64,000 nt of DNA from Candidatus Hodarchaeota archaeon (lineage in GTDB: Archaea > Asgardarchaeota > Heimdallarchaeia > Hodarchaeales > Hodarchaeaceae): assembly GCA_016839815.1 (NCBI GenBank), contig JAEOTM010000057.1, forward strand, positions 26,346 to 90,345, read 5' to 3'. A model generated the notes under the pieces. That model made no database searches. It was not told where the DNA came from and saw only the letters and a program-made list of their open reading frames with translations. Position numbers and translations under genes: made by a program. This document shows positions 32,014-42,012 of this stretch, piece by piece; within the stretch, counting starts at the first letter, position 1; the number at the start of each line of letters is the position of its first letter.

Positions 32014-33423
32014 ATGAACGATGAAAATGATATCTTACTTCGTCAAAGCAAGTGGAATGGACGTAGAGTAGTTTTATTCTACTGGTTTGCCATTGCCTTT
32101 ATGGGTACTGCTGTGGCCGTTGGGTTAGGAACCTCAATTCTTGAACCTACATTCAAGTATGAGGCATTTGACCATAGCACTATCACAGACCCTTGGCATC
32201 CTGAAGACTGTTCTCCTTGTCACGATGAAACAATTGATACATGGAACAACACTTGGCATTCGACCTATGTCGGTGATAAGTTAGTTGTGAATGAAACCCA
32301 TGTCATCCGCTATGGTAACAATCCCTTCATGCCTCCCAGTGTATGGACACTTGAAGAGTTTGCTGCCGAAGGCGGTTGCTGTATGGTAACAAGATGGGAA
32401 AATACTACCCAACCTGGCGATTTAGAACCTTCTGGTGACTTTTGGGATTATGGTATTACCTGTGCTGCCTGTCATGATGAACCTGGAGTTGTTAATGAAG
32501 ATCCTTCCGTCTGTGCTGGTTGTCACCTTCCTGGTGGAAATCAATACGCAGCGTGGGCTCAAAGTGCGCACTCTGATTCACTTGAAGATCTTTTGGCAAG
32601 TCCAGGTGCATCGTCCTACTGTCTTCATTGTATGGCTGGACAAGGTACCTACGCAAACTTAACTGGGGTCGATCCTACTGATTCTAGTCTATCAAGTATT
32701 TACTGTGCTACCTGTCACGATCCTCATGACGCTTCTACAAACTATGATGAAGCATCCGATCATATGGGTCCAAATGGTCATCAATTGAGAGCTGCTACTA
32801 CTAATGAACTTTGTGGAAAATGTCATAGTCAATATGAGTTTATTTCCTCTACGAGTCCAATGAGTATCCATAATGACACTCTGTCGTGTACAGATTGTCA
32901 CGGCTATCGATGGCTCCCAGCATACAATTCTACAGATCGATTCGGAAATCCTGTTGTAGTTCCAGCTGGCTTTGCAAGTATAAACCATACTTGGGAATTT
33001 AGTCCATTCCCTGAGGCTTGTGGTTTATGTCATGGCAATGATAATGCCACAGTTTATGCAACCATGGAAGGTTATATCGGTGATGTTGAAACTTTAATCG
33101 CGCAGTATGATACACTGTTTGAAAACGTTTCAGCAAAAGTCGATGAAGCCAATGATACAAAAGGTGTCGATCAAGCGGAAGTAGACAAAGCCTATGCACT
33201 TCTAGATGAAGCGAAAGACTTGGCTAAAGCATATGATACGGCATTCCACAATCCTGAACTTGCCAAACAAAAAGTACAACTGGCACTGACAAAATTAGAT
33301 GAAGCATATACCATTGCTGTTGATGCAATGGATGCTGCAGATTCAGCGCCTGGATTTGGTTGGATTCTTGGTTTATCTGTATTCGCTGTATTTGCTTTCG
33401 TTATTCGTAAGAAACGACGCTAA
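32014..33423 (+). CDS. Surface multiheme c-type cytochrome with PGF-CTERM-like anchor
   Basis: 7 CXXCH (CSPCH, CAACH, CAGCH, CATCH, CGKCH, CTDCH, CGLCH) plus CLHCM and GGCCM; helical C-terminal domain with FHNP; APGF-TM-RKKRR. Confidence 0.92.
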   Translation: MNDENDILLRQSKWNGRRVVLFYWFAIAFMGTAVAVGLGTSILEPTFKYEAFDHSTITDPWHPEDCSPCHDETIDTWNNTWHSTYVGDKLVVNETHVIRYGNNPFMPPSVWTLEEFAAEGGCCMVTRWENTTQPGDLEPSGDFWDYGITCAACHDEPGVVNEDPSVCAGCHLPGGNQYAAWAQSAHSDSLEDLLASPGASSYCLHCMAGQGTYANLTGVDPTDSSLSSIYCATCHDPHDASTNYDEASDHMGPNGHQLRAATTNELCGKCHSQYEFISSTSPMSIHNDTLSCTDCHGYRWLPAYNSTDRFGNPVVVPAGFASINHTWEFSPFPEACGLCHGNDNATVYATMEGYIGDVETLIAQYDTLFENVSAKVDEANDTKGVDQAEVDKAYALLDEAKDLAKAYDTAFHNPELAKQKVQLALTKLDEAYTIAVDAMDAADSAPGFGWILGLSVFAVFAFVIRKKRR

Positions 33424-33458
33424 GCTAGGGTTGAATAAAAACACTGTACAAGCACAAG

Positions 33459-33495
33459 AACAGTCCTTTTGGACTGTTTCTTTTGTTTTTTTTTT
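33459..33495 (+). terminator. Stem-loop plus poly-T terminator after the cytochrome gene
   Basis: aacagtcc-tttt-ggactgtt followed by long T tracts. Confidence 0.75.
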
Positions 33496-33699
33496 ATTAC
33501 TAGTTGGGGACTGTGAGAGTTATTTTCCTATTTTGTTGCTTAAGTCAAAATCCATGATTTTGAAGCATGAACAATCGTTCATATGATTTCTCACCCCTAA
33601 CCTATCAGTAATCAGTACATAAATAAAATCAACAAATATCTTCCCCAATATCGAGTAAATACACTTTAGAAATTTAAAAATGAAAAAAGATGGAAATCC

Positions 33700-35922
33700 A
33701 TGTCGAAGCAATTATCTCTACGTCCTAATAGAAAAGAATGGGCAATATACTCGTTCCTAACACTCTTCATTCTTGGAGCGTTCCTTCCAAGTTTTCTTAC
33801 TCTTAATTCCTTTCCAACTACTACTAAATCAGAACTAACCCAGTCCTTAAGTCCTTTAGATCATCCAGATCGAACATCTATTGATATTCCCTCTTCCTCT
33901 TTTAAATTAAGTAAGATTTCTCAAGAAGAACCCGAAGCCTACTTTCCTAACTTTCTATATTACTCAATTGAAGTAGCAAATGCCATGATCGATCATTTAT
34001 TTGACAATGACTCTGGTGGATTCTTTACCTCCAAAGATCAGCATTGGCAAGAATCTAGTGTTAATAGTGAAAAAAAGACCTATGACAATGCTCAGGCAAT
34101 CCTTGCTCTTCTCAAACTTGCTGATGCAGTGATAAATAACACTGAGCGAGATTTTGCTCTTGAAATCGCTGATAAAACTGGAACCAACATGATTAATGAA
34201 TTATATGACACAATTTTTGACGGGTTTTTCTTTAGCCAATCTATTCGTTATAAAAGGCCTGGTGTGCAAGGTAAAGCCATCCAAGCTCTCCTTTCTCTTG
34301 CAGAGGCAACTGGAAATCAAACTTATCGAGATTATGCAGTTAGTACGTTTAATTTTATGGATAGATATGGTTGGAATAGCACAGATGGCTATTATTACTA
34401 TATACTTTCACATTCTGGATTTATTCCTGTTGTTAATCCAAGCGCAGAGGATCCTTACGTTCCTTGGGCTCCAAGAGCAGACCATAATGCCATTTTTGGA
34501 GATGCTTTGCTTGATCTTTATGAATATGAATCGAATACAACCTATCTAAATAGAGCCGTTGATATATACAACTTCTTTAACACTACTTGTCGCAATATGA
34601 CAAATGGCTTATTTTATACAGGACTTAATAGTACCTATCATGTGGTCGATCCTGATAGTGCTGATATCTTCATTAATTCTCTTATCCTTGAGTTTCTCGC
34701 CCATTTATATAATGTAACTGGGAACCAAGTGTATTATGATGATTTCTTTCTCCTTCTAAATAGTGTTCTCTTAAATTACTGGGATCAGAGATATGGGGGT
34801 TTTTACGCAACAATTTCTCTGAATACTGGAGGTTCTGTTGATTATAAAAAATATACAGAAAGACAATTTTATGCTATCAGAGCATTAGACAGAGCGTACA
34901 AACTATCGGATAATAGTTTGTTTTATAATCTCATTTTAGATGCATTAGAATTTCTTAATGATAAGCTATACGATAATGATCATGGCGGATATTATCAATT
35001 ATCCAATGAGGATGGGACTGGTGGATTCGAAACATCTTGGAATGATAAGTTTACTGTTACCCAATCACTCTCCATTTATGCCCTCTCAAATCTATGGCTT
35101 TATAGTAAGCCAGGTGTTCTTAATGCATTATGGTCTCCTTCCGCTCCACGGCCAACGGATCCTGTAACTATTCTAATTGCTGCATTTGACTCAGATGGAA
35201 TTTCTAATGTTTTGTTCAACTATTCCATAAATAAGGAGCCATATCATGCAGTCGAAATGGTTCCCCACTCTTTGGTGGGAAACATGTACAATACATCCTT
35301 AGATCCTCACGCTGATAGTACAAGTGTGAATTTCAATATAATTGTTAACGACACATTGGGAAACCAAGTTGTTCGTGGCAATTATTTCTTTGTGTGGCAG
35401 GCTGATCTTTTTCCTCCGAATGTTGTCGAAATTGGTTTTTTTCCATCATTAGAAATCCCTGTACATAAAGAATTTTCGATTACTGTAAGTGCTCAAGATG
35501 TTCCTTCTCAAGGAAGAGTTAGGTACGTACGTATACGCTACCATCGCTCGGGTCAATCTGAGAAGTCAGAATCCCTTGTACAAATTGATACTCATATTTG
35601 GCAGATTACATTCCCAGAAGGTTTACCAACCCCAGGGACTTATGCTTATTACTTTGAATCCACTGATGATATGTTAAATACTGGGTGGAGTCATAAAAGC
35701 TATTTCTATATTCTCGGCCATCAAGAATCCACACCTTTTGAGCTGGTGATTGGTTTGCTAGCCGTTGTAGGTATTTTTATCCCTGCTGGACTATATACAT
35801 ACGTGGAATATAAGAAAAAAGATGCTCGTAAGACTCTCAAGAGCAGAAGAGAGGTTAGATATAGAAAACGAAGTACTTCAAGTATAAATAAAAGAACACG
35901 ACGAGGTACAAAAAGAATATAA
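33700..35922 (+). CDS. Membrane-anchored (alpha/alpha)6-barrel protein (AGE/GH76-like) with Ig-like domains
   Basis: Repeated D...GGF/Y helical units, KxxYDNAQAI, beta-rich C-terminal domains, TM and basic tail. Confidence 0.6.
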   Translation: MSKQLSLRPNRKEWAIYSFLTLFILGAFLPSFLTLNSFPTTTKSELTQSLSPLDHPDRTSIDIPSSSFKLSKISQEEPEAYFPNFLYYSIEVANAMIDHLFDNDSGGFFTSKDQHWQESSVNSEKKTYDNAQAILALLKLADAVINNTERDFALEIADKTGTNMINELYDTIFDGFFFSQSIRYKRPGVQGKAIQALLSLAEATGNQTYRDYAVSTFNFMDRYGWNSTDGYYYYILSHSGFIPVVNPSAEDPYVPWAPRADHNAIFGDALLDLYEYESNTTYLNRAVDIYNFFNTTCRNMTNGLFYTGLNSTYHVVDPDSADIFINSLILEFLAHLYNVTGNQVYYDDFFLLLNSVLLNYWDQRYGGFYATISLNTGGSVDYKKYTERQFYAIRALDRAYKLSDNSLFYNLILDALEFLNDKLYDNDHGGYYQLSNEDGTGGFETSWNDKFTVTQSLSIYALSNLWLYSKPGVLNALWSPSAPRPTDPVTILIAAFDSDGISNVLFNYSINKEPYHAVEMVPHSLVGNMYNTSLDPHADSTSVNFNIIVNDTLGNQVVRGNYFFVWQADLFPPNVVEIGFFPSLEIPVHKEFSITVSAQDVPSQGRVRYVRIRYHRSGQSEKSESLVQIDTHIWQITFPEGLPTPGTYAYYFESTDDMLNTGWSHKSYFYILGHQESTPFELVIGLLAVVGIFIPAGLYTYVEYKKKDARKTLKSRREVRYRKRSTSSINKRTRRGTKRI

Positions 35923-35940
35923 AACTTTGGAGATATTACA

Positions 35941-38289
35941 ATGATTTACATTGGTTTTGGAACGTTTGGTATAGATTTAGGGGCGATTATTCTAGTCATC
36001 AGCTTAGTTGCGTTTATTCTTGATGCCGTATTTGTCTTACTTGGTAAATATGTTGAAAAATGGGAAATATATTCTGAGATGAGTTTGTCTACTGGGATGG
36101 TTGCCCTTCTCATTGCATTTCTTTATTTCGCTTTTTCTGTCGTGACAAACGATTATACCTTTTTCTATGTCAGTGAATATGTAAATAATGATATGGATTT
36201 CTTCTTCAAATTATCCGCCCTCTGGAGTGGACAAGCAGGAAGTTATTTCTTTTGGGCATTCCTTATTGGTGTAGCCTACTATATCTTCAGATTGCTATTT
36301 CGTGAATATGCTCATGAACCCCTCTTTTGGCGAGCTTTTGCATTAGCTGCAATTCAAGTTGCTGTGTTATTGCTGTTAGCTGTAATGAGTAACCCTTTCA
36401 AGCTAAATAAATCCATTCGCTCGGATGGACTTGGACTTAATCCCTTTTTAATGAATATCTGGAATGTTATTCACCCGCCTGTTATCTTCATTGGATATGC
36501 TTTATGTTTAATTCCCATGGTGATCGCTATTGCTCGAATATCACTGCTTGAAGACGGAAAGGTTCCTGACTTCGAAGGTAAACAAAAATTGGACTCTTTC
36601 TTTGAATTTACAGTCTCTGCTGCTTGGTTAATCTTGAGTTCTGGAATCATTGTTGGGGGGTACTGGGCATATATTACCCTTGGATGGGGTGGATTCTGGG
36701 CCTGGGATCCTGTAGAAACAGCCTCCCTTGTTCCTTGGTTATTTATCACACTCTATTATCACGGAAAACCATTTTTACGGAAACATGAATATTTAAATAA
36801 CTATATTGTCAGTATGAGCTACGTGGGTGCATTATTTGTTACATACATTACACGGGGTGGAATAATTAATAGTGTCCACGCTTTCGTTCCAGGAGCAGGA
36901 CTTGAAACAATATTAGAACACCCATTTTCAATCTTGAAAGACATCCCATTCTTGGATATACTCCATCCATTACTCAAGGATATTCCTTTTATTCCTAGAA
37001 ATAGTTTCATTATGAGCTTTATTCTCCGATTCATTCCTGAAGAACGAATATTGATTCTTTTCATACTTATTCTTACATCATTTCTCCTTCCTCATATCCT
37101 TGGATTTACTAGAAGAGAGATAGGTACAATTCCCAGATTAATTGGAAGAGATGACTTAAAAGCTTCTCGTACGCGAATGACTGCCATAAAAATATCGTTT
37201 ATTGCAGGTTTAATTGGCACTTATGTTATCGTTTTTGCTCTGATTACTCCTGTTATCTATGATATGTTGGGATATTTAGTCACACTCAGCAATGATGGTT
37301 TCAATGGAAGAATTATCATCGACAAACCGATTTACAATACAATAATTGCAGTGTTTGGAGGTGCTATGCTACTTGCTCAATTCTTCTGTACGTTTTTCCC
37401 ACGAATATCCATCAACAGAAAATTCCAATTATTGACTGGAGGAGTCGCTGCAGGTATTATTTTCTCTGTTACTGGCTATTTCTATAGGACGGGCTCATTC
37501 AAATCTTTCTTTAGCTCTAGTAATCCTATTGTATCCATTTTAAGTAACTTCTGGACCTCAAGTGAAAAAGCAAACTTAGTTCTACCCTTAATCATTATTG
37601 GGATTATTGGATTAATCTGGGAGTTTATTCAGGTGGCTTTGAAAGAAGAAAAACATTTTATCCGGAAAACTTCCCAAGTAATGCTCCACTTGTCCTTTCT
37701 AGTTATTATTCTTGGTGCTTTAATGAGTGCAAATATGACCAATTCGCAATTAGTTATTGGTTATAATGGTGATCAGATTGAAATTACTGGTTCTTCATTA
37801 ACAATAACGATCTTAGATTTAGAAAGGATTATTCCTGAATCTGGACAACATAGTGTTGAATATAATACACGATTTATGATATCCTCAGGTTCAAATGTGA
37901 TTGGATTTGGAATTAGCTCCCTTTATTGGGATACGGCCTATGAAAGGTTTGGGATCAACAATCGTCAAGGACAGGACGTGACAATTATCACCAATTTATT
38001 CTCCGACATTTATGTTGTGTCAGTTTGGGATCCCAATTTAGATTTAAACCTATATAATCATCCTCTCTTTGGTTTCACTGGTGTTGCACTGCAGGTCAAG
38101 ATCATCCCATATGTGAATATTCTCTGGGCTGGATGTATTCTATTGCATTTTGCTATCATCCCCCTGACGGTGGGAAGATTTTTTTCTTTGAAAGATATTA
38201 TGAAACCCAAGGATGAGCAAGAGAAAAACATTAAACAAAATGAAGGAGACGGAACGAATTCAGCAAATGGTGATATAAAAAATGGCTAG
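35941..38289 (+). CDS. ccmF: Cytochrome c heme lyase CcmF
   Basis: WSGQAGS, GLNP...IHPP, WAYITLGWGGFWAWDPVET, SVHAF. Confidence 0.93.
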   Translation: MIYIGFGTFGIDLGAIILVISLVAFILDAVFVLLGKYVEKWEIYSEMSLSTGMVALLIAFLYFAFSVVTNDYTFFYVSEYVNNDMDFFFKLSALWSGQAGSYFFWAFLIGVAYYIFRLLFREYAHEPLFWRAFALAAIQVAVLLLLAVMSNPFKLNKSIRSDGLGLNPFLMNIWNVIHPPVIFIGYALCLIPMVIAIARISLLEDGKVPDFEGKQKLDSFFEFTVSAAWLILSSGIIVGGYWAYITLGWGGFWAWDPVETASLVPWLFITLYYHGKPFLRKHEYLNNYIVSMSYVGALFVTYITRGGIINSVHAFVPGAGLETILEHPFSILKDIPFLDILHPLLKDIPFIPRNSFIMSFILRFIPEERILILFILILTSFLLPHILGFTRREIGTIPRLIGRDDLKASRTRMTAIKISFIAGLIGTYVIVFALITPVIYDMLGYLVTLSNDGFNGRIIIDKPIYNTIIAVFGGAMLLAQFFCTFFPRISINRKFQLLTGGVAAGIIFSVTGYFYRTGSFKSFFSSSNPIVSILSNFWTSSEKANLVLPLIIIGIIGLIWEFIQVALKEEKHFIRKTSQVMLHLSFLVIILGALMSANMTNSQLVIGYNGDQIEITGSSLTITILDLERIIPESGQHSVEYNTRFMISSGSNVIGFGISSLYWDTAYERFGINNRQGQDVTIITNLFSDIYVVSVWDPNLDLNLYNHPLFGFTGVALQVKIIPYVNILWAGCILLHFAIIPLTVGRFFSLKDIMKPKDEQEKNIKQNEGDGTNSANGDIKNG

Positions 38290-38674
38290 TACAAAAAATA
38301 TCATCTTAGCGGGTGGTATAATCGCATTATGCGCTGGTTCACTATTTATCTTATTTGTTGGATCCTCAGTTCCGATCTACAGTGTGAAGGAATTAATGGA
38401 TGATCCAAATGCAGAATCCTATATTGATCGAAGAATTCAAATTGTAGGTAATGTGACTACAATAACAAATATCACCCATTTCACCATTACTGATCCTGAG
38501 ATTGTAGATCCTTCGTTAAAGATTCAAGTTGTAGCACCAGTCACTGTTGTAAGGCCACAAAGATTTGCCCTAGATAAAACAGTAGTGGTGGAAGGAAAAC
38601 TCCTCTCTATTGATGGTATCTGGTTATTCAAAGCTTCCATGATAAGTACAAAGTGCCCATCGAAGTATGAGTGA
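38282..38674 (+). CDS. ccmE: Heme chaperone CcmE (CXXXY variant)
   Basis: N-terminal TM, VVVEG, KCPSKYE. Confidence 0.92.
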   Translation: MASTKNIILAGGIIALCAGSLFILFVGSSVPIYSVKELMDDPNAESYIDRRIQIVGNVTTITNITHFTITDPEIVDPSLKIQVVAPVTVVRPQRFALDKTVVVEGKLLSIDGIWLFKASMISTKCPSKYE

Positions 38675-38775
38675 TCTTAGACATTCAATTGACTTGTCAA
38701 TTACTCTTCCCAGAAGTAAACCTTAATAAATATACTAAATCTGTATTTAATTACATACTAATGGAGCAAAAGACA

Positions 38776-38877
38776 ATGCCTCGACCAGTTAAAAGAGTAG
38801 ACACAGAATCAAAGGAAAAAGCAACTGAAGATGCTGAAAAGAATAAAGACACGGTACCTATTTCAAAACATTATTAA
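38776..38877 (+). CDS. Putative 33-aa charged peptide heading the JAB-E1-E2-E2 operon
   Basis: MPRPVKRVDTESKEKATEDAEKNKDTVPISKHY*. GGAG lies 9 nt before ATG 38776 (alternative ATG 38761) and a TATA-like ttaataaa is at about 38723. Confidence 0.55.
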   Translation: MPRPVKRVDTESKEKATEDAEKNKDTVPISKHY

Positions 38878-38924
38878 CTAGATCTCTTCTTATCTAATTC
38901 TGATCCTTAAAGGGGATTTACTTA

Positions 38925-39872
38925 TTGCATTCATATCAAGGGGAATCCATATTTATCCAAATTGATCAGGATGTGTACGATGAGATGGTTAAGGAGGGTT
39001 TACAGTGGCCACGTATCGAAACAGGAGGGATGCTATTCGGAAATCTCATTGAAGATGAGAATCATTTAGTAATTGAAATTCTTAAAACACAGATACCTTC
39101 CGATGAAAACTGTATCCGTGAATCAGCATATTTTGAGATTAATCCCGATTACGCCAAGCAAATCTTATCTCAGGAAGAACTTGACTATTTAGGGAATTGG
39201 CATAAGCATCCTGGATATGGTGGACCGTCTCATGGTGATCACCAACAGATTCATGATTTTTTCCTTAATAATCCCCACTTAGATGTTATATTGACTTTTA
39301 TCCTAAATTTCCATTCCGAACGAGAGTATGAACCGATAATTGAAGTTTACTTTAGAGAGAAGCAGAATATGGTTGAAACTTCCTTCATCACAAGATCAGT
39401 ACCACCAAGTAATCTTAGTTTTACTCCTACTACTATACATGAACGAACACCAGTAATCAGAGAAAAAGGAGTATCAACGGATATTCTATCGAGAGTAAAA
39501 CACGAATTAGTGAACATTTTTGACCATCTTTCGGCAATTCACGATATACAGGATTATCCTGGTCAAGCTCCAGATGAGAAAGTCTTATCATTCCCCTATC
39601 AATGCCAAATTAGTCATTTAGATCAATTAATATACGTAAATCTTATGATATCAATTTCTTTTCCCCCTGAATTCCCTAAGGGTAAGCTTTACTTTGATAT
39701 TTCATCAGAGGACATGTCAAAAAATTTTACTTTTAAAACTCATACCGCGGAAACCTTAAATGATATGGAACTTGTACATCCATTTCTATCTCTTTTAAAA
39801 TCTGATATTGAAGATGATTTACCTGTACTCCTTGAAAAGCCCTTATGGAGAGTAATACAAAATAATTTGTGA
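38925..39872 (+). CDS. JAB/MPN+ metallo-isopeptidase fused to a C-terminal UBC/RWD-like domain
   Basis: IETGGMLFG...YLGNWHKHPGYGGPSHGD (intact E-HxH-S-D); C-terminal ISISFPPEFPKG. Confidence 0.88.
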   Translation: MHSYQGESIFIQIDQDVYDEMVKEGLQWPRIETGGMLFGNLIEDENHLVIEILKTQIPSDENCIRESAYFEINPDYAKQILSQEELDYLGNWHKHPGYGGPSHGDHQQIHDFFLNNPHLDVILTFILNFHSEREYEPIIEVYFREKQNMVETSFITRSVPPSNLSFTPTTIHERTPVIREKGVSTDILSRVKHELVNIFDHLSAIHDIQDYPGQAPDEKVLSFPYQCQISHLDQLIYVNLMISISFPPEFPKGKLYFDISSEDMSKNFTFKTHTAETLNDMELVHPFLSLLKSDIEDDLPVLLEKPLWRVIQNNL

Positions 39873-41113
39873 TAAAAATGAAATTTTTACTCTATCCAGA
39901 ACTTGAAGCACGATTAAAAAACATACCTTTCCAAGAGGATCCTTTACCCCTATTTGGACGGTCTTTTGATGATTTTACTGTATTTCATTTGGTTGATTTG
40001 ACATCTACCAGCAATGATATTTATCAAATCGGATATCTCTCGACAGAAACAACAAATTCCAATTTTTCCATGACTTTTCCCTTTATTAATCTGACTCTTG
40101 ATAATAAAACATTTAAGATAACAAAGATCACCATTCATAGAAATAAAGACAATATTGAATCATTAGATGAGTTTGAAATAGAATCCATTGATCTTGAACG
40201 ACTATTTGTACGTATTGATCAAGAAGAAACCCCTTTAAATATATTAAGAACAAAAACGGTCGCCATTATTGGAATGGGATCAGGTGGTTCCCTTTTGGCT
40301 TTATATCTGGCAAAAACAGGTATTAAGAGCTTTATCCTCATCGATGATGACCAACTTGAAGTCCATAATATTATACGTCACATTTCTGATCTTTCCCAGC
40401 TCGGTAGGTACAAAACTAAAGCAGTTAAAGACTTTATTCGAAAGAGATTACCAGAAACTCAAATAAAAACTATAGAACGAAAATTTGTATTGCACACAAG
40501 AGCTGATGCAGACTTTTTCCTTGAGATCTTCAAAGATATTGATCTACTAATTGCTGTTTCCGGAGAACACGACGTTAACTTTGCAATCAACGATTTTGTA
40601 CATATAAATGACTTGAAATTTCCTGTTATCTATGCAGGAACATTTGATGGAGTAAAAGGGGGATTAATGTTCAAAGTGGATAAGCGTGAAGATGATCTCT
40701 GTTATCATTGCGTTTATGCTGATACTTTAACTTATCCTTTGTCAGACGGTGACCCTCAAGGAAGTATTCCGACAACAAGTGAGCTAGAGAAGAAGATTGT
40801 ATATGATCGGACCATGCAAGAACAACTTGCTCAACCAGGATTAGGATTAGATATTGATAACATAACTCTCCTCCTCTCAAAATTTTGCTTGGATACTCTG
40901 CTTAAGGGTCATGAACATGGATTATATCACTTCCCTTTCAATTTTTATCTCTGGTATAACAGAACTATCTTAAAACCTGATTCAGAGGAGATTAAGTTTG
41001 AAGGACTCGAATTGTGTTACTATGAGGATTTAGAGAAGAGTAAGGAATGTCCCTTCCACGGAAATCAGGTTGGATCAGATTCAGACACTGATAAAACTGA
41101 ATTTAATCGTTAA
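39869..41113 (+). CDS. ThiF/MoeB/E1-family adenylyltransferase
   Basis: IIGMGSGGS, LIDDDQLEVHNIIRH, GRYKT, Zn site CYHC...CPFH, QPGLGLDI. Confidence 0.92.
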   Translation: MIKMKFLLYPELEARLKNIPFQEDPLPLFGRSFDDFTVFHLVDLTSTSNDIYQIGYLSTETTNSNFSMTFPFINLTLDNKTFKITKITIHRNKDNIESLDEFEIESIDLERLFVRIDQEETPLNILRTKTVAIIGMGSGGSLLALYLAKTGIKSFILIDDDQLEVHNIIRHISDLSQLGRYKTKAVKDFIRKRLPETQIKTIERKFVLHTRADADFFLEIFKDIDLLIAVSGEHDVNFAINDFVHINDLKFPVIYAGTFDGVKGGLMFKVDKREDDLCYHCVYADTLTYPLSDGDPQGSIPTTSELEKKIVYDRTMQEQLAQPGLGLDIDNITLLLSKFCLDTLLKGHEHGLYHFPFNFYLWYNRTILKPDSEEIKFEGLELCYYEDLEKSKECPFHGNQVGSDSDTDKTEFNR

Positions 41114-41141
41114 AATAAAAATTAATAGAAGTTGAGAGAGC

Positions 41142-41576
41142 TTGTCACTTAGAGGTAACTTAGTCGATAGGGAATTGGAAAGTTTACGGAAAATTTTTCC
41201 TGATATACATAAGAAAGACTTTCTTCAGCTGAAAAACAAGAATAAATGTGTACAAGTCAGCTTTATTACTACAGGCAAATATGCCTGTGGACATTTCGAT
41301 GTACTTATCGAATTTCCTTATAATTATCCAGTAGGATCACCCCTTGTGTGGGTTCAAAGACCCCGAATCCCAAAAAATACGCCACACGTATATGGATGGG
41401 ATAAAGATGGACACGCAAGTATTTGTTATCTTAGACCCAAGAAAGATTGGCGTATGCACTATAGTTCATATGAAACAGCTCTCATGGTAGAAGCTTGGTT
41501 GAAGACATATTGCAGATGGACAAAAACAAGCATTTGGGATTGGCCAGAAGCAGGTGTACTTGATCACATATTTTAA
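41142..41576 (+). CDS. E2/UBC-fold conjugating enzyme (paralog 1)
   Basis: LIEFPYNYPVGSPLVW, PHVY...SICYLRPKKDW with catalytic Cys. Confidence 0.85.
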   Translation: MSLRGNLVDRELESLRKIFPDIHKKDFLQLKNKNKCVQVSFITTGKYACGHFDVLIEFPYNYPVGSPLVWVQRPRIPKNTPHVYGWDKDGHASICYLRPKKDWRMHYSSYETALMVEAWLKTYCRWTKTSIWDWPEAGVLDHIF

Positions 41577-41607
41577 TAAATGAAATACTGAATAGGGAAA
41601 TACCAAA

Positions 41608-42012
41608 TTGAGACGGACAGTTGAGAATGAATTACATGAACTAAAGGGAGTATTTCCAGGATTAACTCGTAAAGATTTCTACTATCTTGACAATGGAAAT
41701 ATTGCTGTACAGGTAAAGTATTCCACCACTGGACAGTATGCTCATGGTACATTTACTGTATTGATTGAGTTCCCCCATAATTATCCGAATGCTCCACCCC
41801 GAGCTTGGATTATGGAACCAACCATTTCCAGTCGTACACATCATATCTATGGACGAGATAAGTACGGACATACTGAAATATGTTACCTTCGACCTCAAAA
41901 AGATTGGCACTTCACCTTTACATCTTATGATGCAGCAATTATGATTCAAACTTGGATTTGGGCATACTGTCGATGGAGAAAGGTTGGTATTTGGGATTGG
42001 AAAGAAGCTTAA
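41608..42012 (+). CDS. E2/UBC-fold conjugating enzyme (paralog 2)
   Basis: LIEFPHNYPNAPPRAW, HHIY...EICYLRPQKDW with catalytic Cys. Confidence 0.85.
   Translation: MRRTVENELHELKGVFPGLTRKDFYYLDNGNIAVQVKYSTTGQYAHGTFTVLIEFPHNYPNAPPRAWIMEPTISSRTHHIYGRDKYGHTEICYLRPQKDWHFTFTSYDAAIMIQTWIWAYCRWRKVGIWDWKEA

Follow-up and report, generated by a model that had tools for sequence, protein, structure and literature searches.

An E1/E2/JAB cassette of Hodarchaeales led by a 33-residue peptide, a candidate protein modifier

What might a ubiquitin-type conjugation operon attach to its targets if it encodes no ubiquitin? The question is raised by a five-gene cassette in a 64,000-nucleotide stretch (the window) of contig JAEOTM010000057.1 from a Candidatus Hodarchaeota archaeon. 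Here the calls of open reading frames (ORFs) place genes for a 33-amino-acid peptide, a JAB metallopeptidase, an E1 adenylase and two E2 proteins (E2a and E2b) in this order, all on the + strand; an earlier note on this DNA had described five co-oriented ORFs, and they are present at that place. Because the same gene order was found again in about 20 loci, the arrangement is far beyond chance. We conclude that the cassette is a real and intact variant of prokaryotic conjugation by E1, E2 and JAB, apparently not described so far, and that its peptide is a strong modifier candidate. Genes and key codons are as follows (CBASS, cyclic oligonucleotide-based antiphage signalling system):

38776–38877, + strand: peptide, 33 amino acids, charged, C-terminal Lys-His-Tyr; candidate modifier.
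38925–39872, + strand: JAB, with a JAB/MPN+ metallopeptidase at about residues 1–172 and a C-terminal alpha/beta domain without conserved Cys.
39878–41113, + strand (39869 is an alternative start): E1, a ThiF/E1 adenylase.
40802–40804, + strand: codon of the conserved E1 crossover Tyr, placed by homologue alignment.
41142–41576, + strand: E2a, E2-CBASS type, catalytic Cys codon 41424–41426, with a conserved short C-terminal extension.
41608–42012, + strand: E2b, E2-CBASS type, catalytic Cys92 (codon 41881–41883), without an HPN motif.

The peptide is a real gene under strong purifying selection. Its frame is the sole one open in all 15 loci compared, and across its 33 codon columns the variable ones number 9, 4 and 30 at the first, second and third codon positions; mean non-synonymous divergence (dN) is 0.062 and mean synonymous divergence (dS) 1.98, giving a dN/dS of about 0.03. 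A structured RNA and an opposite-strand ORF were considered for the same region, and the codon substitution pattern rules out both. Among close orthologues the peptide is 79–100% identical, which makes it the most conserved gene of the cassette (JAB, 43–68%; E1, 54–76%), and its terminal His-Tyr is invariant. It has no match in Pfam, NCBIfam, PADLOC or Rfam; 15 of the 33 residues are charged, six residues are Lys, and the length does not suffice for a beta-grasp fold. Across 22 genomes of the genus (Ca. Hodarchaeum) it strictly co-occurs with the E2s: 12 genomes, all E2 carriers, hold one copy each, and in two other E2 carriers the contigs end before the peptide position. The peptide thus travels with the enzymes, which supports the earlier proposal that E1, E2s and JAB form a self-contained module, with a candidate modifier other than ubiquitin.

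Six relatives carry unrelated variable tails of 1–6 residues past His-Tyr, as is seen in JAB-trimmed precursors. BilA likewise has a variable tail after its Gly, and JAB exposes the reactive end (bioRxiv 2023.09.26.559546). This pattern bears on the alternative that the peptide is an acceptor or sensor, the donor being a C-terminal tail on another protein, either cellular or viral. Its six Lys would suit such a role, and Cap2-type E1s read tails, not folds (bioRxiv 2022.03.31.486616), but it is the peptide's own C-terminus that shows the pattern of processing, and no host ORF other than the peptide ends in a similar tail; we consider this alternative quite improbable.

How could such an end be activated? 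The E1 matches the ThiF profile (E=2e-24), its best PADLOC profiles are those of CBASS E1-E2 (E 4e-29) and the ATP-site residues R113, GxGxxG, D157, R168 and K180 are retained. The first account of the locus recognized the enzyme set but overlooked that this E1 has no thioester Cys and instead carries a crossover Tyr: Cys is found in the crossover loop of 0 of 76 homologues, and Tyr is aligned in 68 of them and offset yet present in the other 8. The host ubiquitin E1, on contig C135, has the crossover Cys. The crossover Tyr is required for conjugation in BubCD (bioRxiv 2024.11.21.623953), and Cap2 activates a disordered non-beta-grasp tail, with its E1 Cys dispensable in vitro (bioRxiv 2022.03.31.486616). 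Because BubCD uses this Tyr and Cap2 conjugates without the E1 Cys in vitro, either a Tyr oxyester or direct transfer could, by analogy, charge the E2 Cys of the cassette.

The E1 also has an N-terminal domain of about 110 amino acids with a zinc site (CxxC...CxxH), for which the ESM Atlas returned only sub-threshold leads (a Cap2 linker cluster, 0.77); the E1 N-terminus had no match to the JAB profile. The top Foldseek rows for the E1, obtained with a model of pLDDT 58 and a poor C-terminal half, are Cap2 (7TO3) and BubCD. A complex prediction for the E1 dimer with ATP and the peptide scored 0.37, with a control at 0.44, and was not used.

Compared with PDB sequences, the E1 profile has the peptide-modifying ThiF enzymes PaaA and MccB among its best matches, at E~1e-9 and thus close to the values for ThiF and Cap2. 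These matches, together with a short, precursor-like peptide that occurs as tandem copies in a distant locus, would also suit maturation of the kind seen in ribosomally synthesized and post-translationally modified peptides, in which ThiF activates the peptide C-terminus and the product is a cyclised form, or a conjugate with a lipid or small molecule, instead of a reversible protein tag. However, nearly all loci have two E2s with their Cys and also a JAB, a set that suits transfer and removal; no conserved exporter or tailoring enzyme lies nearby, and the E1 groups with Cap2-type fusions. We regard such maturation as unlikely.

The enzymes predicted to transfer and remove the tag have intact motifs. 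Both E2s belong to the precomputed family PF26395 (E2-CBASS) and are 52% identical to each other, and the catalytic Cys that had been noticed in each is invariant in 30 E2 sequences. The JAB/MPN+ motif, previously called intact, is invariant in 11 orthologues (E32, H93, H95, S102 and D105); the protein matches Prok-JAB at E=5e-7 and CBASS JAB profiles at E~1e-12, and VIA comparison of its predicted model gives Rpn11 (Z 13.8) and Cap3 (9ILD, Z 13.2). The C-terminal domain of the JAB, once labelled UBC/RWD, has a weak, colinear match to E2 (HHalign probability 3.7%, E=0.011), and its model runs helix, four strands, helix (best VIA Z for the domain, 6.8). There is no UBC among the VIA matches listed and nothing in the ESM Atlas. 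The label is thus weakly supported, and the domain may be a Cys-less E2-like module (a possible pseudo-E2). The E1 had been described as overlapping the JAB; since orthologues begin at Met 39878, the E1 probably starts 5 nucleotides past the JAB stop.

The kinship of these enzymes points to CBASS. In an E1 tree that omits L119, L120, L171 and one host E1 (motif unmatched) as well as eukaryotic and characterised Cap2 sequences, the window E1, most peptide-linked E1s and Asgard CBASS fusions form one clade (97/98, midpoint root); host ubiquitin E1s stand apart from it, and the enzymes of three distant Asgard loci (L115–L117) also fall outside. Among Asgard E1 relatives that lack a peptide, the nearest are type II CBASS E2-E1 fusions beside CD-NTases that end in aromatic-Gly/Ala, often with a short tail. 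Because window E1, most peptide-linked E1s and CBASS fusions share a clade, a single lineage of enzymes appears to take either the free peptide or the CD-NTase tail as its substrate. Eight Asgard fusions of the type II CBASS kind (L119, L120 and L170–L175) have the crossover Tyr and no crossover Cys, and several of their CD-NTases extend 1–2 residues past the terminal aromatic-Gly. This suggests Bub-like chemistry inside Asgard CBASS fusions; as their loop, too, is Cys-less and Tyr-bearing, such chemistry may be commoner than described.

More distant relatives of the E1 and E2s, in Asgard genomes and metagenome contigs, adjoin other short peptides whose penultimate residue is aromatic, an ending reminiscent of the CD-NTase tails. 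These end in Trp-Tyr (L087 and L111), in Phe-Ala (L118), or in Trp-Ala or Trp-Gly followed by tails (L135, L113, L130, L132 and L133). Four of the distant families have aromatic+X at the natural stop and a hydrophobe at −7, a pattern found in 3.2% of host ORFs. Two loci have a peptide-like segment fused to the E2 N-terminus (L114:3710–4282 and L178:2107–3228), in L178 after Cys-rich zinc-finger-like repeats. In the Asgard loci L115–L117 a peptide gene precedes E2-E1-JAB; it is a single copy at L117:3618–3761 and L115:6172–6354 and three tandem copies at L116:6127–6528 (genome G347), resembling a polyubiquitin precursor. The same three loci adjoin CARF-like, PIN and cas1/cas2 genes or a repeat array.

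On balance we favour the view that the cassette is related to the Cap2/Cap3 pair of type II CBASS but has no cyclase, and that a free 33-residue peptide would serve as the tag in place of the CD-NTase tail. From the gene content, motifs, conservation and co-occurrence that we observed, we infer the following chemical steps. JAB would trim any tail and expose the C-terminal carboxylate of Tyr33, which the E1 dimer would adenylate with ATP. The acyl group would pass to the Cys of E2a or E2b, either by way of an oxyester on the crossover Tyr of the E1, which is the Bub route, or without this intermediate, as Cap2 C548A can do. The E2s would then transfer the peptide to amines of target proteins without an E3, possibly building chains on its six Lys, and JAB would take it off again. 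We advance only tentatively the wider proposal of a widespread, undescribed class of E1/E2/JAB systems that tag with short unfolded peptides, here activating a C-terminal Tyr and moving it by way of an E1 Tyr oxyester and E2 Cys thioesters to proteins; in these archaea, the nearest relatives of eukaryotes known, such tagging would coexist with canonical ubiquitin.

Several observations weigh against tagging by the peptide. To our knowledge, no E1/E2 system activates a C-terminal Tyr, and the E1/E2 modifiers known so far are beta-grasp proteins or a CD-NTase tail, ending in Gly or Ala. Of 76 E1 homologues, 66 have Gly at the position where an Mg-binding Asp is usual. No neighbour is conserved beyond the five genes, and no effector or defence gene is kept beside the Hodarchaeum cassette. 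As regards the wider family, the cut points in tailed and fused distant peptides were assigned after the data had been seen, and the sequences are not independent. Finally, the peptide is conserved over its whole length and not at the C-terminus alone, which a pure tag would not need.

Conservation of the full length would suit a binding partner, as expected if the enzymes charge a ubiquitin-like protein (Ubl) or SAMP encoded elsewhere and the peptide serves them as adaptor, inhibitor or regulator. Potential modifiers exist: ubiquitin is present in 22/22 genomes of the genus, and in the host genome (G000, 89.5% complete) ubiquitin-family matches are confined to contigs C135 and C7, with four ThiS/MoaD matches on four other contigs. 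On C135 (L043:6574–13641), ubiquitin, ending in Gly-Gly plus a 3-residue tail, lies with its E1, and a small GTPase, a RING-like gene and a canonical E2 are nearby. The C7 operon (L044:6378–11122) encodes two Ubls, an E1, an E2 and a JAB, and also a membrane protein with a RING-like end; both Ubls have one Gly at the end, which in one of them is followed by a 2-residue tail. These ubiquitin and Ubl genes adjoin E1/E2 genes of their own, however, and the variable tails past His-Tyr and the peptide-E2 fusions suggest a processed C-terminus; we think it improbable that the cassette works on a modifier from elsewhere. Within the locus itself, the loci read and the ORF list bear out the statement of the earlier note that no Ubl or CD-NTase is present, and the same holds for RING among the ORFs listed near the locus. 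Across homologous loci, the synteny that the note had proposed as a check agrees, as loci of the peptide type never contain a Ubl or CD-NTase.

Is the cassette, then, a remnant or a working system? Two elements lie directly 5′ of the peptide gene:

38716–38733, + strand: BRE/TATA-like promoter element (BRE, B recognition element), an A-rich run plus TTAATAAAT, about 45 nucleotides 5′ of the peptide start; found by eye, with a putative function.
38763–38766, + strand: ribosome-binding site GGAG, 5′ of the peptide start.

By eye, the BRE/TATA-like element precedes the peptide in 15/15 loci despite differing flanking genes, as does GGAG, 7–13 nucleotides from the start; a sigma-70 promoter scan stayed at chance level. 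Orthologues of the E2s occur in 14/22 genomes of the genus, and outside it close relatives are scarce across 400 Asgard genomes. Gene order within the cassette is fixed and its neighbours vary (here ccmE and moxR; elsewhere pyrimidine genes, a TPR gene and others), and its G+C content matches that of the window. Because identity of E2b tracks that of the host marker MetRS (93–98% versus 85–87% in the near group, 74–79% versus 69–73% in the others), the history appears to fit vertical descent with rearrangement and loss. In a close relative (G013) the flanking orthologues are also missing from the assembly, hence comparison of an empty site was uninformative. Viral contigs held no relative of the peptide or the E2s and one weak ThiF fragment.

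That the nearest peptide-less E1 relatives are CBASS E2-E1 fusions could mean that this is a degenerate CBASS that has lost cyclase and effector. Yet genes and motifs are intact in about 20 loci, the peptide is under purifying selection, the cassette has its own conserved putative promoter and its identities track MetRS; no SMODS or cyclase match was found with the profiles used in the host genome or the other carriers. Degeneration is largely refuted and very improbable. Nor is a link to the origin of eukaryotic ubiquitylation, which had been suggested, supported, because the E1 lies outside the host ubiquitin-E1 group and the cassette is patchy in a genus in which every genome has ubiquitin.

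If the cassette does conjugate, antiviral tagging comes tentatively first among its roles, because of the CBASS kinship, the patchiness and the defence-type neighbours of distant loci. A domesticated cellular or stress tag is an almost equally plausible role because of the vertical descent, the housekeeping flanks and the near-invariance of the whole peptide. Some other role is unlikely.

How does the cassette compare with known systems? The closest is type II CBASS Cap2 (E2-linker-E1) with Cap3 (JAB), operon class 6b of Iyer et al. 2006 (PMC1779556). The two share a homodimeric ThiF-type E1 with an extra N-terminal domain, an E2 without HPN, a JAB and no E3, and the known substrate on the Cap2 side is a disordered non-beta-grasp tail (bioRxiv 2022.03.31.486616). 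Unlike CBASS, the cassette has no CD-NTase or cyclic-nucleotide effector, encodes E1 and E2 as separate genes, and has two E2s and a free Tyr-ending peptide; unlike Cap2 of E. cloacae (C548), its E1 has no crossover Cys, nor have the eight Asgard fusions examined. With Bub (6E/DUF6527; bioRxiv 2024.11.21.623953) it shares an E1 loop with Tyr and no Cys and processing by JAB, and the type I Bub fusion of Ubl and E2 (BubAB) parallels the peptide-E2 fusions of L114 and L178. Bub, however, includes a beta-grasp Ubl, E2s with Ser in place of Cys, and BubE, whereas the cassette E2s keep Cys, and Ubl and BubE are absent.

The JAB, E1 and both E2s match parts of the 6A-MBL model NF058523 at 12–61 bits, all far below its cut-off of 320, and class 6a, like the cassette, is listed without a Ubl (PMC1779556). 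In contrast to 6A-MBL, an E2-E1-JAB fusion with a metallo-beta-lactamase, the cassette has separate genes, no metallo-beta-lactamase and a dedicated peptide gene. BilABCD is similar in its modifier with a conserved terminal residue and variable tail, and in having E1, E2, JAB and no E3, but BilA is a Gly-ending beta-grasp protein and BilD an IAD-AAD-CYS protein with catalytic Cys, and the cassette has neither. E1, Cys-type E2 and JAB also occur in the archaeal Ub-E1-E2-RING-Rpn11 system (PMC5654768), from which the cassette differs in having no ubiquitin, RING, E1 crossover Cys or E2 HPN; operons of that kind are encoded at other sites in the host genome, with E1s that form separate branches. 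Judged by sequence, the cassette comes closest to Cap2/Cap3, combined with an E1 loop of the Bub type, and is not a member of CBASS, Bub, Bil, 6A-MBL or archaeal ubiquitin. The claim that its layout matches no known system therefore holds for the modifier, which is new, and not for the enzymes, which are kin of Cap2/Cap3. Pup and UBact are also small, charged and probably disordered tags, but use glutamine-synthetase-like ligases (PafA, Dop), not E1, E2 and JAB.

None of the operon classes listed by Iyer et al. 2006 (PMC1779556) includes a peptide of this kind, and a literature search, with most subscription papers outside its coverage, found no description of a peptide-JAB-E1-E2-E2 system. 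If the peptide is indeed a free, Tyr-ending tag of 33 residues, the cascade would need only a tail, the chemistry of E1 enzymes would be widened and Hodarchaeales would have another code for tagging in addition to ubiquitin. With five small genes and a peptide that can be synthesized, the system could also yield a compact peptide ligase/protease pair.

Directly 5′ of the cassette, window positions 32014–38674 encode a multiheme cytochrome c, a GH76-like membrane protein, a CcmF-like protein and CcmE, which are not conserved with it. Elsewhere, the E2 family turns up in other settings: L086:6498–7898 (G278) encodes a fusion of a protein kinase with an E2-like domain from this family and is clustered with FHA, vWA and phosphatase genes, and L088:749–1753, on a short metagenome contig, carries a C-terminal Cys-less copy beside an intact E2.

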